Shown: piece by piece, positions 578 to 29,995 of the stretch
Layout of the letters: each line of letters opens with the position of its first letter
How positions within the stretch are numbered: the stretch's first letter is position 1
From: a virus
Taxonomy: Duplodnaviria; Heunggongvirae; Uroviricota; Caudoviricetes
Reading direction: 5' to 3' (one strand)
Virus record (IMG/VR): IMGVR_UViG_2563366895_000001
Location: 27,011-91,010 of that record
Length of the DNA: 64,000 nucleotides
Made by a program: the position numbers and the translations under genes
Notes under the pieces: generated by a model
The model's input: the letters and a program-made list of their open reading frames with translations, nothing else
Told to the model about the DNA's origin: nothing
Database searches by the model: none

Positions 578-3700
<3,123 letters not shown>

Positions 3701-3817
3701 TTCGATAATGATTTTTGGCCCTGAAAGCGCCTCCCACAATCCCATATAAAGCGCGCTAAAAAATATACAAATATTTTCGCAAATGTTAGACTGAGGAGAA
3801 GTAAAGAGGAGCGAAAA

Positions 3818-4150
3818 ATGACCACAGTTCGTCGTATGCCAGCCCTCAGCCCGGAAGAAATTCGTAAAATTTCGAAGAATGCCGTGGCGACGGTCGCTGC
3901 GGAAAAAATTGTTACTAACAAAACGGCCTTTGTAAAGGCTGCCGTTGCAGGCGTGATTGCAGGCAAAAAAAATGAAGTTAGTCGTAAAGGCGATAGCCAA
4001 ACTGTCCGTAAAGTAGCAGCTGCATCAGCACGGGATGCAAAGGCTTACAGCCTGTCTCGTCAATTAGCAATGTCCGTCCTATCACAGAGCAGCGGGCGGG
4101 AATATATTCAAGAATCGTTTAATCAGGTTCGTAAAAATAAAAAAGCGTAA
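3818..4150 (+). CDS. Hypothetical small basic protein
   Basis: 110-aa ORF preceded by AAGAGGAG Shine-Dalgarno-like sequence. Confidence 0.4.
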   Translation: MTTVRRMPALSPEEIRKISKNAVATVAAEKIVTNKTAFVKAAVAGVIAGKKNEVSRKGDSQTVRKVAAASARDAKAYSLSRQLAMSVLSQSSGREYIQESFNQVRKNKKA

Positions 4151-4914: not shown

Positions 4915-5290
4915 CCATCAGTGGCGGCTGTAGCTCGGACGGATATAACGCATCGGAGGCGACGTAACGGTTGAGCGGCGCGCGAACGAGCTGGAGCCAT
5001 AATAGCGTTTGGTCGCTGGTGGCGTTGTAGCGCGGCGCCGGATGGTAGTTTTTAATGACGGTCGTATGATGCGTGATGTTGATATTGCTGCTGTGTCCAT
5101 AGCCACCACCGCTCATCAGGTGTCCCATCAGCAAGTCGCTGAAGACCCCGCTGTTATCGTAATAGTGGACCCCTCCCGGCGCGGATGGCTGAGCGACGAT
5201 TACCGGTGCCGGGCCGTCACGGTCACACAAGCTGAGCGCAACCAGGGCAAACAGCACGTCACCAGCAATCAACAGATGTTTCTTTTTCAT
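4877..5290 (-). CDS. Putative lipoprotein (P1 plp-like position)
   Basis: Start taken at internal ATG 5290 (MKKKHLLIAGDVLFALVALSLCD, signal peptide with Cys) preceded by GGGAG; lies after the tRNA region as plp does in P1. Confidence 0.4.
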   Translation of the reverse strand: MKKKHLLIAGDVLFALVALSLCDRDGPAPVIVAQPSAPGGVHYYDNSGVFSDLLMGHLMSGGGYGHSSNINITHHTTVIKNYHPAPRYNATSDQTLLWLQLVRAPLNRYVASDALYPSELQPPLMVMPLHRGAVYLP

Positions 5291-5463
5291 CTCCCGCGTG
5301 CGCTCAGCCGCATTCGCCACAACGGAAAGAGCATCTATGGCGCACATCGCGGGAAAAAGCCCACGGTAGAGAGTCGAACTCTACAAATGCTCTTATCTGT
5401 TGTGCACTCCGTTTCGAGGAATAGATGTCAGAGTCGTACCGGCAGAATCATCACATTGGTATA

Positions 5464-5970
5464 TGGTGATGGTTGATGGAATTGAACCGCCGTAGCTATT
5501 TCTTTATATCCAATAAACCTGCGTGGACTTTTCTGTGGCAATTCGCACAGAGGACAATGTACTTCCTTACTTCTTCCTTAAGTCGCTTTCGAGATCGACT
5601 ACATAGGTTAGAAGGATCGCCTTCTTTGCCGCCAGGGTTATCATGGTGGAGGTCCAGAACTATAGGTTCTTTTTCTCCACAATTTTGGCACCCGATGAAG
5701 CGTTTATAACGAGATAAAAACTGACGGTTTGAACTTGTTTTTCTCGTTCTTGTTAACTTTATAAGCCGGCGCCTTGATTCATTGCTTGCATAACTCAGAG
5801 CATCTCTTTCCTTGGCGCACACCTTGCAAATATTTTGCAGGCCATCGCTCTTTCCTTTGTTTTTATGGAAATCGGAAGCAGGTTTTAGTGCTTTGCATTT
5901 GCTACAAATTTTCATCAGTATCCCACTGCTTACAAGGCAGACGCTCTAACCACTGAGCTACACCATCACT
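5464..5970 (-). tRNA. tRNA-Thr(UGU)-like gene in two pieces: 5' part at 5926..5967, 3' part with encoded CCA at 5464..5497, separated by a 428-bp insert
   Basis: 5' part reads GATGGTG-TA-GCTC-AGTGGTTA-GAGC-G-TCTGC-CTTGTAA-GCAG (D-arm, anticodon arm, anticodon TGT); 3' part reads A-GCTAC-GGCGG-TTCAATT-CCATC-AACCATC-A-CCA; acceptor halves pair 6/7 and the anticodon stem is completed only when the two parts are joined. Confidence 0.5.
5496..5915 (-). CDS. HNH endonuclease (homing-endonuclease-like) occupying the tRNA insert
   Basis: N-terminal Cys cluster (CSKCKALKP...ICKVCAKERD) and C-terminal HNH motif (NCGEKEP...LDLHHDNPGGKEGDPSNL...LCANCHRKVH). Confidence 0.7.
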   Translation of the reverse strand: MKICSKCKALKPASDFHKNKGKSDGLQNICKVCAKERDALSYASNESRRRLIKLTRTRKTSSNRQFLSRYKRFIGCQNCGEKEPIVLDLHHDNPGGKEGDPSNLCSRSRKRLKEEVRKYIVLCANCHRKVHAGLLDIKK

Positions 5971-6635
5971 TGCCGGGTACGTCTCCGGCGAGGGCTTCCA
6001 CCTCCGTATGCTTTTCGGCGCACCGCGCCCTAGCTGCAATTCGGTAACAGGGGATGCATAACCCTGGCTTCCAGCGTGATTAGCGCTTTCAGCATGACGG
6101 GATATACCCGTAAATTAGTGGAACTGTACCCAAAGTGCTGTTAAGCACCGGCTGTTACGCTGAAAAGAAGACGCAACAGGAAAGGACGCTGACCAACAGA
6201 TGGCCCCTTCTCGTTCATCTGGTTAATCACACCAGCGCCCTTACCTGTTGTGCCTCCCCATTCCCTAATACACAGACGGGGGCACTCTGCGGTCGATTTT
6301 TTGACGGGGGACGACTCATACCCCGTGGCATCAGGCTTCTTAGGCCGCTGCCATCATCAGATCATCGTTTGCATTTACTTTAATGGTCAGTTTCTAAACC
6401 GCCGCAAAGTCGCTAACCATGACGAAAACCCAGAAAAAACGCCCACCCGAAGATGGGCAAACTGGAAGCTCGTAACGCACTTCGGTGTTGCCACTTAGGC
6501 GTATGGTCAACCTGGCAACTCGGCGTCATGAGGGGGAAGGAGTCACTACCCCGCCATACTTGCCGCCGCGCCTGTCGCGGCTAACAGCTAAATCGCTCTA
6601 TAAATCACGATTCATTGAGTCGATATTACACTAAT

Positions 6636-6652
6636 AAATTTATTAGAGCAAT
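6636..6652 (-). promoter_or_regulatory. C1-repressor operator-like site (16/17 to ATTGCTCTAATAAATTT), overlapping the dmt stop codon
   Basis: Plus strand reads AAATTTATTAGAGCAAT, the reverse complement of the P1 C1 operator consensus. Confidence 0.55.
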
Positions 6653-9600
6653 GTAGCCATAACGTCATGAGCAACACCACGAGTGTCTCCCTTACAAGAC
6701 ACAGAACGTCTGGCAAAGAGAGGTTCCACTCTGAAGCCACTGTCCTGATAAAGTTCTCTGATGTTTGGCGCGCCACTGTTAGTAATGAGTACCTTTGCAC
6801 CTCGGCGATGAGCATCCGTCAACAGAGACACCAGGCGTTTTTGCTCTTCAAACTTAAAGTCATGACCGGAATAGTTCGTGAATCCCTCTGTATTTGGAAG
6901 CGGTTCATATGGCGGATCGCAAAAAATGACATCTCCTTCTCCGGCAGCTTCAATCACCGCAGCAAAATCACCACATACAAACTCAGAACGCCCTTCCGCA
7001 CCAAGGAAGACTTCCATCTCCTGCAATGGGAAATACGGAGTTTTATACTTCCCATAACCGACATTGAACTCACCGGCTTGGTTGTAACGCGTCAATCCAT
7101 TAAAACAATGTCGGTTCAGGAACAAAAACGCCGCTGCGAGATGTAAATCATCATAGACTTGTTTGTTAAACGCATTCCGTACTGCCAGGAATCCCTCCTG
7201 GGTGTTGTAGTCCAGGAAGAAACGATGTGCCAGAGTGATAAGTGAATGCGCCTCGCGTTGCAGAGTCTTGTAAAAGTTAATCAGGTCAGCATTCACATCA
7301 TTTAGCAGATTTTCCTGGTATCCGGCATTTATGAAGACAGCTCCGCCACCAACGAAAGGTTCAATCAGGCGCTTCCCTTCTGGCAAATAGCGAAAGATTT
7401 GTTCCAGAACACCAAATTTTCCACCAGCCCATTTGAATATGGACCGTTCGAATTCTGCCGCTGGTTTAACTTTTCGCTCTTTTGTTTCACTTCCTTCTTT
7501 CTGCCGACATACGGCCTTAGTAATCCGATCGCCAATCCAGCACATTACTGGTATTGCCATACTATTGCCGATCGCTTTGTAACGCGGTCCGTCAGCTGCA
7601 AGCATCGCGGCCTCTTCTTCGCTTAAATCTGGATAGTGATTGCGAAGATATGCCAGTTCATCTGAATTAACTGTTTTACGCTTTTCCGTCGGGATCAACG
7701 TATGCCCATCAGGAAAACCTTGCAGCCTTTCACATTCGACAGGGGTAAGACGGCGCATTCTACCGTCGCCGAGCAATACAATTGGTGCTTCATGGTTACA
7801 TGTCAAAGTTGGTGCCGAATTATCGGTTTTTATCTCAGCCCCTCCTTGCCCATGTGCCATGGCAATTATGTTTGTATCATCGCAAGTTCTGATAGCGATG
7901 TTTGAAGTATATCTGGTAGTTTCCTTCCCCTCGCCTCTGCTCGGCGCAATATCCCGGCGCACGCCTTCGAACTCAAAAAGTACCGTTGCGGGATCGAGGT
8001 CTGTTCGAGCACTTGCGACAACAAACACGCGTCGGCGTCGTTGTGCCACTCCGAAGTATTGGGCATCAAGGATTCTCCAGGCCACTTTTCGCTGCGATCC
8101 ATAAATACAACCACACTGCGGCCACTTTGGAGCATGGCAACCGGTTTTGCCATCCCACCGCCAGAACGCGTTACTTTTTCCTGATTCAGGTCGATCACCT
8201 GGTTCAAATGGCGCATCTTCTCCAGCCAATCCGGCAAGGAAACATCCGAAGGCGTTATCTGCCGATGACAAGACTCCTGGGACATTTTCCCAGACGATAA
8301 CGGCTGGTTTGAGAAATGACTCAGCCCGTTTGTCGTCAATTGCATTTGCAAGCTCCACATACTTTAAAGTTAGCGCGCCACGCTCATCATCAAGCCCACC
8401 ACGTAATCCCGCGATACTGAATGCCTGACAGTTATGGACCACCGCACCATTGAGGATATAGGAATGATCACCTTCGACTTCTATGTTGTATACAGTATCT
8501 AGGCCTACCGATTTAAACTCTTTGACTGTTCGTAAAAGCATTCCATGAGCCAATCTTGATTTACGTGACAATTTCTGCGGGCAGATTGTTACCTGATAAT
8601 AATTCCGTTGATTTACCACGCGATCCTCGATCACTTTTTTGGGCTCAACTTCAATAAAGCTGACCGAAGAAACATAACCACAAGTCTGTGACAACCCCGC
8701 AACGCCCCAAGCAAGCGCAGGACTAACACTATTAATTCTAAATCCCGCTTTACCACTTGGTGTCCCATCAGTATCAAGATAGCCTTGTAAAAACACATGA
8801 CGCAATGGATGCGACATCACCCATGCAGGGATACGCTTAGCATGGCTTAACTCGCCAAAATGTTCATTAAGCCAATTGGCATAACACGTATCATTCAAGG
8901 TTACTTTGATGCTCCCTCGGATTTCGCTTGCCACGGAAAATATGTTTTCTGGTATGCGGCAATGAAACTTTCTCAATTTCTGGCAATTTATGCCAAAAAC
9001 AACCGCCTTCTTAGATTTACCTCTCCATCTCCTAATATATCCATCGCCAACATAAGCGCCCGCAAGATACATAGCCTGTTCTTCAGACAAGAACCGAGAA
9101 CAAATATCTGGAGATGCAATATTGAAATTAGTTAGAGCGCACCATTGATATCCCGGCATATCACATGCTGCTCGCCATTCCGGTTCAGACAACAACTCTC
9201 TCTTAAAATATGTGCCATTTTTCCGGGTGTTTTGGGCTTTCCACCGAACAGCCAGGAAGGGATGGTCATTGGTTGTTCTTATACCTAAAGGCTGCCCAAC
9301 GGCATTAAGTAACCCCGTATTAGCTATTTTTGAACCAACTCTTTTTACTTGTTGTAACCGCCCGAGATGACTGACTACGTAATCGCCAGGGCAAACATCT
9401 TCTATTGGTTTATAACCATTTTTACAAAGAACCATATGCCCCGCGGTAAAACATGGTGTTCCCCCGACGAGCACGTCAGGGGATTCGATTTCCCCAGCCA
9501 AGACTTTTTTGGCAAGTTTTGTCATGTCGCCAAGGTTGGCGACATGGGGCCAGCGGAGCGCAAGAACGGCCGATGGAAAAGGCTCGATTTCAGCAAACCA

Positions 9601-26415: not shown

Positions 26416-27453
26416 TTAACCTATTGCTACTGGTTTTAACAAACCAGCATCAAGTAGCTTGCGAGTTAACCACTGCTGGCCTTTACCCGTTAATTGGGGC
26501 GTCAGCCGTATCTGGTAGCCATTTTCATCATCCAGCACCACTTCTTTCACCGTGAAATACCCGGCGTTAATGTACTGCTGGCGCGGTACGTTTTTGCGCG
26601 CACCAAAAGCCATGAGAATGCCGTTCTGGCGCAACCATGAGAAAAGGGCGTTTTGCTTAAGTCCAACGACCTTTGCAAAGTTCCCGATCAGGATTGCATT
26701 AGCCGCTGATACCCGGTCGGCAAAATCGACTTTAGGGGCTGCGGCCACCAGCTGTTGTTCCAACTGCATTTTCTGTTCTGCCAACTCGGCAGCCAGGCGT
26801 AGAGCGTCTGGTAATGTTTGGGGGATCGATGGCGCAGGGGAGTTTGCCTGCTGCAATTCTTCCAGTTTGTCGATCAGCGAACGGCGGACTGCTTTTGACT
26901 CGCGCGCGGCGACTCGCAGGGCTTGTTTGAAAGTCATGGTTATGACAAGCATTGATGTTTTGTTCATTTTTTCCACTACACTTTTTGTGTAGTGCTCACC
27001 ATCAAGCTCATCGAGTATTTTTTCGATGAATTTGTTGTTCCGAACCTCTGGTTCCCTACATAACTTACGCGCTTCATTGACCATCTTTAACAGTGTCAGG
27101 CTGTCGATTGTGTCTCCGGTGTTGGGGATGATATTCACGGCTGGTGCTGGCGTAGCTGAAGCAACAGGTGCTGGTTTTTCAACATTCAAATTATTACCGG
27201 TCATTCTGCGCGCCTCCTTTCTCATTTCTGCTGCCACTGTTGCGTAACGTAGACGTCCTTGTTCAATCAAATAATCCCTGATCTCGGCTATCAGTAGCCT
27301 GTTGATCACAGCCTTATCTGTTCGGGTATAAAAACGTCTGGTTATCATGAAATAGTTGGCAATTGCGCCGGGGATCTCCCGTGTCGGCATACAGGTTGTA
27401 TGCAAAGCGATCGCTTTGGCTATTTCATTACGGGTGACGAGAGGTTTTTTCAT
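26416..27453 (-). CDS. ant: Antirepressor Ant-like protein
   Basis: 345 aa; phage antirepressor-type C-terminal domain; preceded by icd-like ORF with ATGA-type overlap. Confidence 0.65.
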   Translation of the reverse strand: MKKPLVTRNEIAKAIALHTTCMPTREIPGAIANYFMITRRFYTRTDKAVINRLLIAEIRDYLIEQGRLRYATVAAEMRKEARRMTGNNLNVEKPAPVASATPAPAVNIIPNTGDTIDSLTLLKMVNEARKLCREPEVRNNKFIEKILDELDGEHYTKSVVEKMNKTSMLVITMTFKQALRVAARESKAVRRSLIDKLEELQQANSPAPSIPQTLPDALRLAAELAEQKMQLEQQLVAAAPKVDFADRVSAANAILIGNFAKVVGLKQNALFSWLRQNGILMAFGARKNVPRQQYINAGYFTVKEVVLDDENGYQIRLTPQLTGKGQQWLTRKLLDAGLLKPVAIG

Positions 27454-27699: not shown

Positions 27700-27900
27700 A
27701 CCTGCTACCCGCTGCTAAACAGGTGGCAGGACGTGACGGGGTTAGCAGACTGGCGATTGTGAAACCAGCAGGCCGAAGCCTCCCCATCCCGCCCCACCAT
27801 AATTTGGGCGTAACGCGGTTTTACGGACACAAAAATACCGCAATATCGGATATCTGCGGCTGTCCGCACAATCATTCAGGCTGCTAAACCCGGTCGCAGA
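27700..27900 (-). ncRNA. c4: Region expected to encode the c4-type antisense RNA (not resolved at nucleotide level)
   Basis: By synteny only: between the operator at 27986..28002 and icd. Confidence 0.25.
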
Positions 27901-27985
27901 ATTTGCTACGACGGCGAAACTATAAGCCTGAACGATTAAAAGGTCAATATGATGCGAAAAGATAGCATTCGCGACTTAAAAATAC

Positions 27986-28002
27986 AAATTTATTAGAGCA
28001 GA
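27986..28002 (-). promoter_or_regulatory. C1-repressor operator-like site upstream of the c4-icd-ant block (P1 Op51 position)
   Basis: Plus strand AAATTTATTAGAGCAGA, 15/17 to the reverse-complemented consensus. Confidence 0.5.
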
Positions 28003-28283
28003 TTAGTGTCGTGCAATAGATATATTATTTGTGATGAAAAATAATGCAGAGGGATATTGTAACTTTAAGATGGATATCAATAGTCGATACATAAATTAAG
28101 TTAGCAATAAACTATTAACTTAAGAAATAATGCAGATGGTGAACTTGTCTCTGACTTTTCAGCTATACACAATAAGTTAGGGATAGCTTATAAAAAGTTG
28201 ATTAATTGATATAAGTCAATGGGAGTATTCTTGTTTACTTTCCGTTCTCGTGGTAACTTCTCGCCGGTTTTTGTTTTTCTGGG

Positions 28284-28805
28284 ATGATTCTTATGTCTAA
28301 AAAGTATACTTTATGCGCTCTTGTTGTATCTGCAATTCTTCTTTCTGGGTGTCAATCTAGCGGTGCTGATTATGCTGCCGATGTTTATGATACCGCTCAA
28401 TTGAATTCGAAGCAGGAAACAAAGACAGTCAATATTATCTCTGTGCTTCCAGCTAAAGTGAAAGTTGATAATAAAGCTAATAAAGAAGCGGCACAGACAT
28501 TTGGTGCGGTACTGGGAGCTGTTGCTGGGGGCGTTGCCGGTTATAATGTTAAAGGCACATCGACACTGGGTGCTGTAGCTGGCGGTACTGGTGGTGCGGC
28601 TCTTGGTGCAGCGGCTGGTTCTTTGGTTAGTGATAAAACAATTGTTGAAGGTGTTTCACTGACTTATAAAGAAGGAACTAAGGTGTTCACTTCAACTCAA
28701 GTTGGTAAAGCATGCCAGTTTACAACGGGGCTTGCTGTGCTTATTTCAACTAAAGATAATGAAACTCGAATTCAGCCAAATGCTACTTGTCCAGAAAAGA
28801 AATAA
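28284..28805 (+). CDS. Outer-membrane lipoprotein with glycine-zipper region (visibly AT-rich)
   Basis: Signal peptide with lipobox LLSGC; Gly-zipper GAVLGAVAGGVAGYNVKGTSTLGAVAGGTGGAALGAAAGS. Confidence 0.5.
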   Translation: MILMSKKYTLCALVVSAILLSGCQSSGADYAADVYDTAQLNSKQETKTVNIISVLPAKVKVDNKANKEAAQTFGAVLGAVAGGVAGYNVKGTSTLGAVAGGTGGAALGAAAGSLVSDKTIVEGVSLTYKEGTKVFTSTQVGKACQFTTGLAVLISTKDNETRIQPNATCPEKK

Positions 28806-28808
28806 TTT

Positions 28809-29348
28809 ATGAATAAAATTATTTTATTTCTAATCTTTTCTACGTTTAGTGTAGGCACTGCCTTGGCTAACTCGTTGCAAAGTCAAATTGCTGCTATTGC
28901 TCAAGCGGAAAATGAAGGGCGAGCTAAAGAGCAGCAAGCTGAGGATGCCAGAAAAGAACTTATTCGCCAACAAGCACAAGCTGAACGTATTAGAAGAGAA
29001 AAAGCAGCATCTGCCGCTGCTGCACGCGAAAAACAGCGTGTTGCTGCAGAAAATGAACGTAGAGCGAAACGAGAAGCCGAGCTAGCAAATGACAAGAAGC
29101 GAGATCAAGCTTATGAGGATGAGCTTCGCAAGCTGCAACTCGAAAGCATGAAACTCGAACTGCAAGCAAAAGCGGCTCGTGTCCAGCGAGAAAACGATTT
29201 TATAGAGCAGGAGTTGAAGGAGAGAGCAGCTAAGACAGATGTAATTCAGTCTGAGGCTGATGCAAATAGAAATATTTCTACAGGAAGTAAAGATTTACTG
29301 CAAAGCGAAGGAAAAGCTAGAGAGAAGAAAGCTAGCAGTTGGTGGTAG
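28809..29348 (+). CDS. Secreted coiled-coil protein
   Basis: N-terminal signal peptide (FSTFSVGTALA), then highly charged Ala/Glu/Arg/Lys-rich helix. Confidence 0.4.
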   Translation: MNKIILFLIFSTFSVGTALANSLQSQIAAIAQAENEGRAKEQQAEDARKELIRQQAQAERIRREKAASAAAAREKQRVAAENERRAKREAELANDKKRDQAYEDELRKLQLESMKLELQAKAARVQRENDFIEQELKERAAKTDVIQSEADANRNISTGSKDLLQSEGKAREKKASSWW

Positions 29349-29388
29349 TAATCGCTACGATTGCGAGCATACTGTCACAAATGACAAC

Positions 29389-29995
<607 letters not shown>

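Follow-up and report, generated by a model that had tools for sequence, protein, structure and literature searches.

What might a temperate phage gain from carrying two AT-rich genes for exported proteins directly beside its immunity region? We raise this question for a stretch of 64,000 nucleotides (hereafter, the window; positions 27,011 to 91,010 of the Caudoviricetes record IMGVR_UViG_2563366895_000001 in IMG/VR), which derives from a P7-type phage-plasmid of the P1 family. In the window, two open reading frames, ORF1 (28284..28805, 173 amino acids as called) and ORF2 (28809..29348, 179 amino acids), follow one another on the plus strand with a gap of only 3 nt, as the original prediction, made from the nucleotides alone, had described; it had considered a role for them in superinfection exclusion. 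The decisive fact, which was absent from that prediction, is that the pair, as judged by homology, is a mobile and complete paralogue of yfgH-yfgI, an operon conserved in enterobacteria. ORF1, the counterpart of upf50.5 in phage P7, encodes a YfgH-like glycine-zipper lipoprotein of the SlyB superfamily with a predicted location in the outer membrane (OM), while ORF2, the counterpart of P7 upf50.0, encodes a YfgI-like protein of the DUF5384 family.

Homology and predicted structure

The product of ORF1 is 100% identical in amino acid sequence to P7 Upf50.5 and 67% identical to Escherichia coli YfgH over its full length (E=6e-73). A profile of 42 YfgH-family sequences, in turn, matches SlyB (PDB 7OJF/7OJG) from end to end (E=1.6e-9); single-sequence searches of the PDB with ORF1 and ORF2 returned no match, SlyB being reached by the family profile only. 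When an AlphaFold2 model of ORF1 was searched with Foldseek, SlyB was the top and sole significant match (E=7.5e-7; template modeling (TM) scores of 0.49/0.57), a result that we take only as corroboration of the sequence-profile match, since the monomer model has low confidence (predicted local distance difference test (pLDDT) score of 56). Full-length homology to YfgH, a match to SlyB in both profile and fold, and a GxxxG hairpin set within a beta-rich domain place ORF1 in the YfgH/SlyB group.

The features of ORF1 can be read along its length. A lipobox, L-S-G-C (28341..28352, plus strand), ends, as in a lipoprotein signal peptide, in Cys23 (codon 28350-28352), which is predicted to be lipidated and to become residue 1 of the mature protein; the residue at position +2 is Gln and not Asp, which fits sorting to the OM, and the lipobox Cys is invariant among the 42 aligned homologues of the YfgH family. 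A predicted glycine-zipper helical hairpin follows at residues 64-113 (28473..28622, plus strand), as delimited by the count of GxxxG motifs (seven repeats, residues 74-112), by the AlphaFold2 model (helices at 64-89 and 94-113 between beta strands, with a beta-rich C-terminal part), and by a sub-threshold match to Pfam Gly-zipper 2TM (18.2 bits, with 24.2 needed). The tip of this hairpin (residues 86-97) is the most variable stretch of the mature protein by column entropy, and two Cys in the C-terminal domain are invariant across the family alignment. The lipoprotein with a long glycine-zipper segment that had been proposed is therefore present. The Pfam matches of ORF1 to TraT, Gly-zipper, and DUF6861 all fell below the gathering scores.

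ORF2 is 100% identical to the P7 upf50.0 product and 47% identical to E. coli YfgI over its full length (E=9e-46), and it matches Pfam DUF5384 (PF17358) at 147.8 bits against a cut-off of 25 (3e-43, profile positions 4-145 of 145). This match above the gathering score, together with a Sec signal peptide and a place directly downstream of a yfgH-like gene, identifies it as a member of the YfgI/DUF5384 family. The signal peptide (28809-28868, plus strand) appears to be cleavable, with an AxA site in which ALA is followed by N, and its removal would leave a mature protein of 159 amino acids that is 41% charged and 19% Ala. AlphaFold2 predicts one uninterrupted helix from residue 3 to residue 178 (pLDDT 87), which would be about 24 nm long if straight, close to the width of the periplasm in E. 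coli. In the family alignment, the N-terminal half varies, in contrast to a conserved C-terminal half (from 29088); DUF5384 proteins have an aromatic C terminus, which is WW for the mobile lineage and WF(N) for copies on chromosomes. The motif checks on both proteins thus agree with the proposal that the pair is exported to the envelope. ORF2 is indeed secreted (by its signal peptide), charged, and helical, as had been described, but the further label of "coiled-coil" is apt only in part: partial heptad occupancy is confined to residues ~90-135, and the N-terminal half, being almost without bulky hydrophobic residues, looks more like a single alpha-helix than a coiled coil.

The match to DUF5384, the ratio of nonsynonymous to synonymous substitution rates (dN/dS), and the occurrence of the identical pair in many plasmids and genomes (both below) indicate that ORF1 and ORF2 are real genes and not chance open reading frames. 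One detail of the gene call needs adjustment. The reading frame does open at 28284, but translation of ORF1 probably starts at the ATG at 28293, given a GGGA Shine-Dalgarno sequence 9 nt upstream; the resulting product of 170 amino acids agrees with the lengths of its homologues. The description of the pair as AT-rich fits the numbers well, as the cassette that holds it has a G+C content of 40.3%, compared with 48.5% for the window, and falls within the lowest 1% of equal-sized windows. G+C at third codon positions (GC3) is 24-31% in the cassette genes versus 47-51% in the adjacent tail genes.

Some labels that the two genes carry in databases were considered and rejected. ORF1 is named a "DNA methyltransferase" in RefSeq records NC_050152, NC_031129, and NC_042128 and in PHROG 1277, and contains no methyltransferase domain. 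The pair is called "minor tail protein" and "tail tip protein" in the record of phi456 (GenBank OR339795), and has no significant match to a tail family. More generally, searches of Pfam and PHROG found no homology to virion structural proteins, which would have spoken against the original prediction.

Genomic context

The interval around the pair (27900-29450) is 99.4-99.9% identical in nucleotide sequence to P7, SJ46, RCS47, JL22, phi456, and many E. coli plasmids. To its left, on the minus strand, lie ant1/2, icd, and the parts of the immunity region that the pair had been said to adjoin, and does adjoin: the C4 RNA (27719-27804; Rfam, 64.9 bits), its a1/b1 targets (27873-27925), and the C1 operator Oc4 (Op(c4), 27986..28002), which was mapped from the P7 annotation and is an exact operator match. 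To its right lies the late promoter LPsit (29377..29397, plus strand; -22 box and a -10 of TAGAAT; from the P7 annotation), followed by pmgC/tubA, tub, pmgB, and sit. When four P1-family variants were aligned, homology ended just past Oc4 and restarted at the -22 box of LPsit, so that ~28003-29376 (28003..29376 on the plus strand of the window) can be regarded as a discrete, exchangeable, AT-rich cassette, with Oc4 as its left boundary, LPsit as its right boundary, and a 281-nt non-coding leader, ORF1, and ORF2 as its content.

P1, as the original prediction had pointed out, keeps its sim genes here: simA-simB-simC occupy this very interval in the same orientation. The prediction had also sensed that the pair is unlike the Sim proteins, and tblastn with SimA, SimB, and SimC was negative in P7 and in 17 P7-type loci. 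The simABC genes are one of eight hypervariable low-GC regions in P1-like phage-plasmids (PMC9603915). Among 511 PLSDB plasmids that match the flanks of the slot, the slot holds a full cassette of the yfgHI type in 166, of the simABC type in 137, and of the Ro157c2YLVW type in 81. In the alternative cassettes, too, all of the encoded proteins begin with a signal peptide. The identical pair is present in 182 of 5426 complete E. coli genomes, in addition to the 166 PLSDB plasmids, and both reading frames are intact in all copies examined.

Three further observations concern this neighborhood. P1 SimA (52 amino acids; simABC at 5173-6457 of locus L002) is a truncated form of a 215-amino acid protein of the Ro157c2YLVW cassette (2700-3875 of locus L010). 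In an element of the Escherichia albertii type (5032-9298 of locus L004), the content is composite: a diverged yfgHI pair is found together with a gene for a membrane protein, with what is left of the Ro157c2 cassette, and with a gene for a 389-amino acid protein that has an SH3 domain. Further to the right in the window, Sit (31595-35314), a tape-measure/transglycosylase reading frame of 1239 amino acids, has a long internal direct repeat near its N terminus (roughly 31700-32250), within which the peptide RVATVDPVSRSVSALNRTIENSRPDFVANAPSV.PIVDAMKRLNLGDVSR is present twice; this repeat may explain its extra length relative to the 1132 amino acids of Sit in L004.

Evolutionary history

The chromosomal counterpart of the cassette is nearly universal in E. 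coli, as a yfgHI locus with which the cassette DNA is 69% identical was found in 5420 of 5426 complete genomes. Across 80 species-representative genomes (Enterobacterales, Pasteurellaceae, Pseudomonas, Photobacterium, and others), a DUF5384 gene lies directly downstream of a yfgH-like gene in 76, which suggests that yfgH-yfgI is an old, tightly coupled two-gene module and that the phage carries it whole. In one mobile copy (L014), the two reading frames even overlap by 4 nt. The closest chromosomal copies among the species representatives are ~77-80% identical in amino acid sequence, with none nearer, so the cassette is not a recent capture from E. coli.

Within P1-family elements, there are at least three deeply diverged alleles of the pair (the P7 type, L004, and L034), with the other two 84-86% identical to the P7 type in the YfgH-like protein and 80-81% in the YfgI-like protein. 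Synonymous divergence (dS) among the three ranges from 0.5 to more than 3, near or at saturation, in backbones where the flanking PmgC is 97-99% identical. For both genes, dN/dS is 0.04-0.15, indicating strong purifying selection, and positive selection was not detected by a gene-wide dN/dS test. Among 17 P7-type IMG/VR loci, the pair is 99-100% identical, while Ant1 ranges from 88 to 95%. The cassette is, we infer, moved by recombination events at the conserved sequences that border it.

The pair also recurs on other kinds of temperate elements. Diverged pairs lie at the outer end of myovirus prophages, beside tail-fiber and DUF4376 genes, at two different chromosomal sites, and another diverged pair lies in a region rich in insertion sequences. 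A ~102-kb Salmonella contig (L008), with a pair diverged to 62%/44%, also carries a Rep3-type gene, tail-fiber genes, and an exonuclease VIII-like gene and probably represents a phage-plasmid; nothing in the phage collection is closely related to it in nucleotide sequence, and no known phage-plasmid type could be assigned to it by nucleotides. At one prophage end, a diverged yfgHI pair (6104-7378 of locus L016, minus strand) adjoins a 424-amino acid gene of the PLD family. We rejected the possibility that this gene encodes a cardiolipin synthase, as it resembles the defense nucleases DpdK/DrmC, and the pair and the gene together look like a small accessory or defense islet at the prophage edge. 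Apparent viral homologues had to be treated with care, since the many E. coli proviruses that inserted between yfgI and guaA bring the host genes into viral records: phage TL-2011b (L009) and ~60 IMG/VR loci (L035, L038-L097) were discarded as phage copies, as they show the host yfgG-yfgH-yfgI at the provirus edge.

Expression signals

How the cassette is expressed is suggested by few signals. A palindrome of the FNR/CRP type, TTGATATAAGTCAA (TTGAT-N4-ATCAA with 1 mismatch; 28206..28219, plus strand), lies ~75 nt upstream of ORF1 as a candidate site. Its position is kept in the three deeply diverged P1-family alleles (perfect in L034, with 2 mismatches in L004), among which the remaining upstream sequence has diverged. 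Such palindromes number 6 in the window versus 3.3 expected, so that a single site is not significant by count; the palindrome may, nonetheless, point to anaerobic or cyclic AMP control of the cassette. A promoter scan of the cassette gave nothing above chance, and no convincing sigma-70 promoter; no C1 operator was found inside it, and its upstream region could not be aligned with the DNA upstream of chromosomal yfgH. A terminator scan of 29349-29376 found no terminator-like hairpin between the ORF2 stop and LPsit, unlike in P1, where a GC stem and a run of T follow simC; transcripts of the cassette might, therefore, extend into the tail-tube operon.

Discussion

Our favored reading, held with modest confidence, is that the pair is an accessory ("moron") module for lysogenic conversion that stabilizes the OM, encases outer-membrane proteins (OMPs), and thereby reinforces or masks the envelope. 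In the mechanism that we envisage, ORF1 would be exported, lipidated at Cys23, and sorted to the OM, as its motifs suggest and as has been shown experimentally for the location of E. coli YfgH (bioRxiv 10.64898/2025.12.22.696046). Its hairpin would enter the membrane, and its protomers would assemble into rings that enclose OMPs and lipid patches, as homology to SlyB and to YfgH suggests, SlyB-like rings having been predicted for the latter (bioRxiv 10.64898/2025.12.22.696046). ORF2 would be secreted to the periplasm as a rigid helix of ~24 nm and would act with the ring, perhaps as a strut or tether on its periplasmic face, a partnership to which the strict pairing of the two genes points. 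The lysogen would, in this way, gain an extra, phage-controlled dose of an OM-stabilizing system and a stronger envelope barrier, with reduced receptor access for other phages as a possible by-product.

Several published phenotypes are in line with such a role. Deletion of yfgH causes sensitivity to sodium dodecyl sulfate/ethylenediaminetetraacetic acid (SDS/EDTA), OM leakiness, and loss of OMPs under stress; yfgH is induced when OM biogenesis is disturbed; and YfgH copurifies with BamA, LptD, OmpF/C/A, LamB, and TonB-dependent receptors (bioRxiv 10.64898/2025.12.22.696046). Hypersensitivity to nalidixic acid has been described for a yfgI mutant (PMC3536626); we read it as a permeability phenotype, and not as a DNA-repair defect, given that YfgI is secreted. 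Bacteria cured of phi456, a phage with the identical pair, tolerate acid and oxidative stress less well, show poorer survival in macrophages, and colonize less efficiently (PMC10967188), circumstantial observations that are consistent with envelope reinforcement and are not gene specific.

A number of points weigh against envelope reinforcement. The phi456 phenotypes are effects of the whole prophage and not assays of the OM barrier; the YfgH mechanism rests on one preprint, in which the ring is a prediction; and the monomer model of ORF1 is poor. The promoter scan was null, and the AT-rich leader could be silenced. Nor is it obvious what a mere increase in dose would bring to a host that, in 5420 of 5426 genomes, has a yfgHI of its own. 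Finally, a function of the specificity type, exclusion for example, would account no less well for the occupation of the sim slot and for alleles that have stayed diverse over a long time.

A dedicated role in superinfection exclusion at the level of surface or entry, as a functional analogue of P1 Sim or of TraT, is accordingly a possibility that we entertain with some doubt as the primary function. YfgH-like rings and the helix would block adsorption to OM receptors or the passage of the tail or DNA across the OM and periplasm. Position alone makes such a role plausible, since the pair lies exactly in the slot of sim, whose products have been reported to cause exclusion (PMC9177967, PMC8546580), and since all alternative cassettes of the slot encode exported proteins. 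The maintenance of three deeply diverged alleles in otherwise near-identical P1 backbones, the peak of variability at the hairpin tip of mature ORF1, the recurrence of the pair beside tail-fiber genes at prophage ends (once by a DpdK/DrmC-like nuclease gene), and the binding of YfgH to typical phage receptors (OmpA/C/F, LamB, and TonB-dependent receptors) point in the same direction, as does a weak resemblance to TraT (Pfam, 7e-5; Foldseek ranks 2-3), itself a chromosomal gene co-opted by plasmids (PMC11733297). The TraT matches are, however, sub-threshold (23 vs 31 bits; E 0.19-0.33), neither protein shows homology to Sim, Cor, or Llp or a match in PADLOC, both are very close to the products of a housekeeping operon, and the strong purifying selection that they have experienced gives no gene-wide sign of an arms race. 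P1-family phages are, moreover, known to adsorb to the lipopolysaccharide core and not to an OM protein. The most specific form of this idea, that temperate phages repeatedly co-opted yfgH-yfgI as an exclusion device interchangeable with Sim, in which allele-specific rings and a 24-nm helix wall off receptors or the tail path, is more speculative still. Exclusion and an OM-stabilizing mechanism are not mutually exclusive and could hold together.

Two other explanations fare worse. The pair could be neutral or silenced cargo, a chromosomal operon captured by a recombination hotspot and not expressed, in keeping with its AT-richness and foreign GC3, with the promoter scan, and with the dispensability of the cassette, as P1 is without the pair. 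We judge this improbable, as dN/dS is low between mobile alleles at saturated dS, both reading frames are intact in every copy examined, several unrelated mobile elements acquired the pair independently, and the upstream palindrome is conserved across P1-family alleles. More improbable still is a spanin-type lysis accessory, in which the lipoprotein and a periplasm-spanning helix would fuse or disrupt the OM late in the lytic cycle. The layout of a lipoprotein and a helix long enough for the periplasm is superficially similar, and a weak match to a PHROG "Rz-like spanin" (E=0.038) covers the signal peptide only. The orthologues are, however, core chromosomal genes in non-phage contexts across Gammaproteobacteria; no holin or endolysin gene is linked to the pair, whose place upstream of LPsit puts it outside the late operon; in place of a membrane anchor, ORF2 carries an AxA signal peptide that can be cleaved; and deletion of yfgH weakens the OM instead of stabilizing it. 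P1, which is without the pair, is nevertheless proficient in lysis.

The sequences themselves are already catalogued, as P7 upf50.5/upf50.0, as DUF5384, and in PHROGs 1277/1094, and the P7 annotation describes proteins of unknown function with signal peptides and already notes their likeness to E. coli proteins. A literature search that included the terms upf50.5, upf50.0, and DUF5384 found no paper on the phage-borne copy, and mentions of yfgH in INSeq, Dub-seq, and phage S144 papers were uninformative. New here are the recognition of the pair as a complete YfgH(SlyB-superfamily)-YfgI module that is precisely allelic to sim, the finding that such modules recur on temperate elements of several kinds, and the near-universal pairing of the two families; in short, a known family in an underappreciated mobile setting. 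Provided that lysogens express the pair, a second copy of an OM-stabilizing system, supplied by a phage, is present in ~3% of complete E. coli genomes (the 182 of 5426 above) and in a third of P1-like phage-plasmids, and could alter permeability to detergent, bile, and antibiotics, as well as phage susceptibility. The elements concerned also spread resistance genes. The pair offers a natural experiment, as at least three unrelated cassettes for exported proteins (those of the Sim, Ro157c2, and YfgHI types) replace one another at a single phage locus, and it gives a handle on YfgI/DUF5384, a family almost always paired with YfgH. Should co-option for exclusion prove true, chromosomal YfgHI and SlyB would have an unrecognized role in phage resistance.

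Relation to known systems

The closest known system is E. coli YfgH-YfgI, which shares with the phage pair its gene order, tight spacing, and product lengths (172/179 vs 173/179 amino acids); the same lipobox, GxxxG hairpin, and two conserved Cys of the C-terminal domain in the first protein; and the conserved C-terminal half and aromatic C terminus in the second. The two differ in that the E. coli operon lies between yfgG and guaA, whereas the phage pair occupies the sim slot with an unrelated upstream region and a much lower GC3, and in that the phage partner ends in WW and E. coli YfgI in WFN, with a strongly diverged N-terminal half in ORF2. SlyB, a stress-induced OM lipoprotein that forms rings around OMPs, has its elements arranged in the same way (lipobox, beta strand, glycine-zipper hairpin, and beta domain), with only ~25% identity; no pairing of slyB with a DUF5384 gene is known to us. 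The genetic suppressors of the corresponding mutants also differ, with the Mla pathway found for slyB mutants and clsA for yfgH mutants (bioRxiv 10.64898/2025.12.22.696046).

P1 SimA/B/C are alike in setting, with an identical slot (the Oc4-LPsit interval), orientation, and boundaries, products with signal peptides, and an AT-rich variable region, and differ in number (three genes vs two) and in family (PHROG 14355 vs 1277/1094); no chromosomal housekeeping counterpart of Sim was found. Cor (phi80/N15) and Llp (T5) are also small OM lipoproteins of prophages, encoded by accessory genes that often lie by tail genes, and act on FhuA specifically. We know of no glycine zipper and no partner gene in either. 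The match of ORF1 to the Cor PHROG (phrog_1119, E=0.022) covers residues 10-54 only and is at the level of the signal peptide. No match to the defense models of PADLOC-DB v2 was found for either protein at E<=0.01, and, of the exclusion proteins against which the original prediction had proposed a homology search (Cor, Llp, and Sim), none matched significantly. Relative to the spanins Rz/Rz1, the pair stands apart in the cleavable signal peptide of ORF2, in the nature of ORF1 as a glycine-zipper protein of 150 amino acids, and in a neighborhood free of lysis genes.

TraT (PDB 9FSM, 9E2V), the surface-exclusion lipoprotein of F-like plasmids, is an OM lipoprotein that forms a ring through a helical membrane domain, as is predicted for ORF1 by homology. 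It is larger (~225-245 amino acids), with a large extracellular ring domain and no DUF5384 partner. ORF1 matches Pfam TraT (PF05818) at 23.1 bits where 31 are needed (E=7e-5), and we do not assign it to that family on account of this score below the gathering threshold; in Foldseek, the TraT decamers at ranks 2-3 were not significant (E 0.19 and 0.33, TM scores of at most 0.26). A parallel lies in evolution: the co-option of yfgHI by temperate phages, as proposed above, would mirror the co-option of TraT by plasmids, in which a chromosomal gene was repeatedly recruited by mobile elements (PMC11733297).

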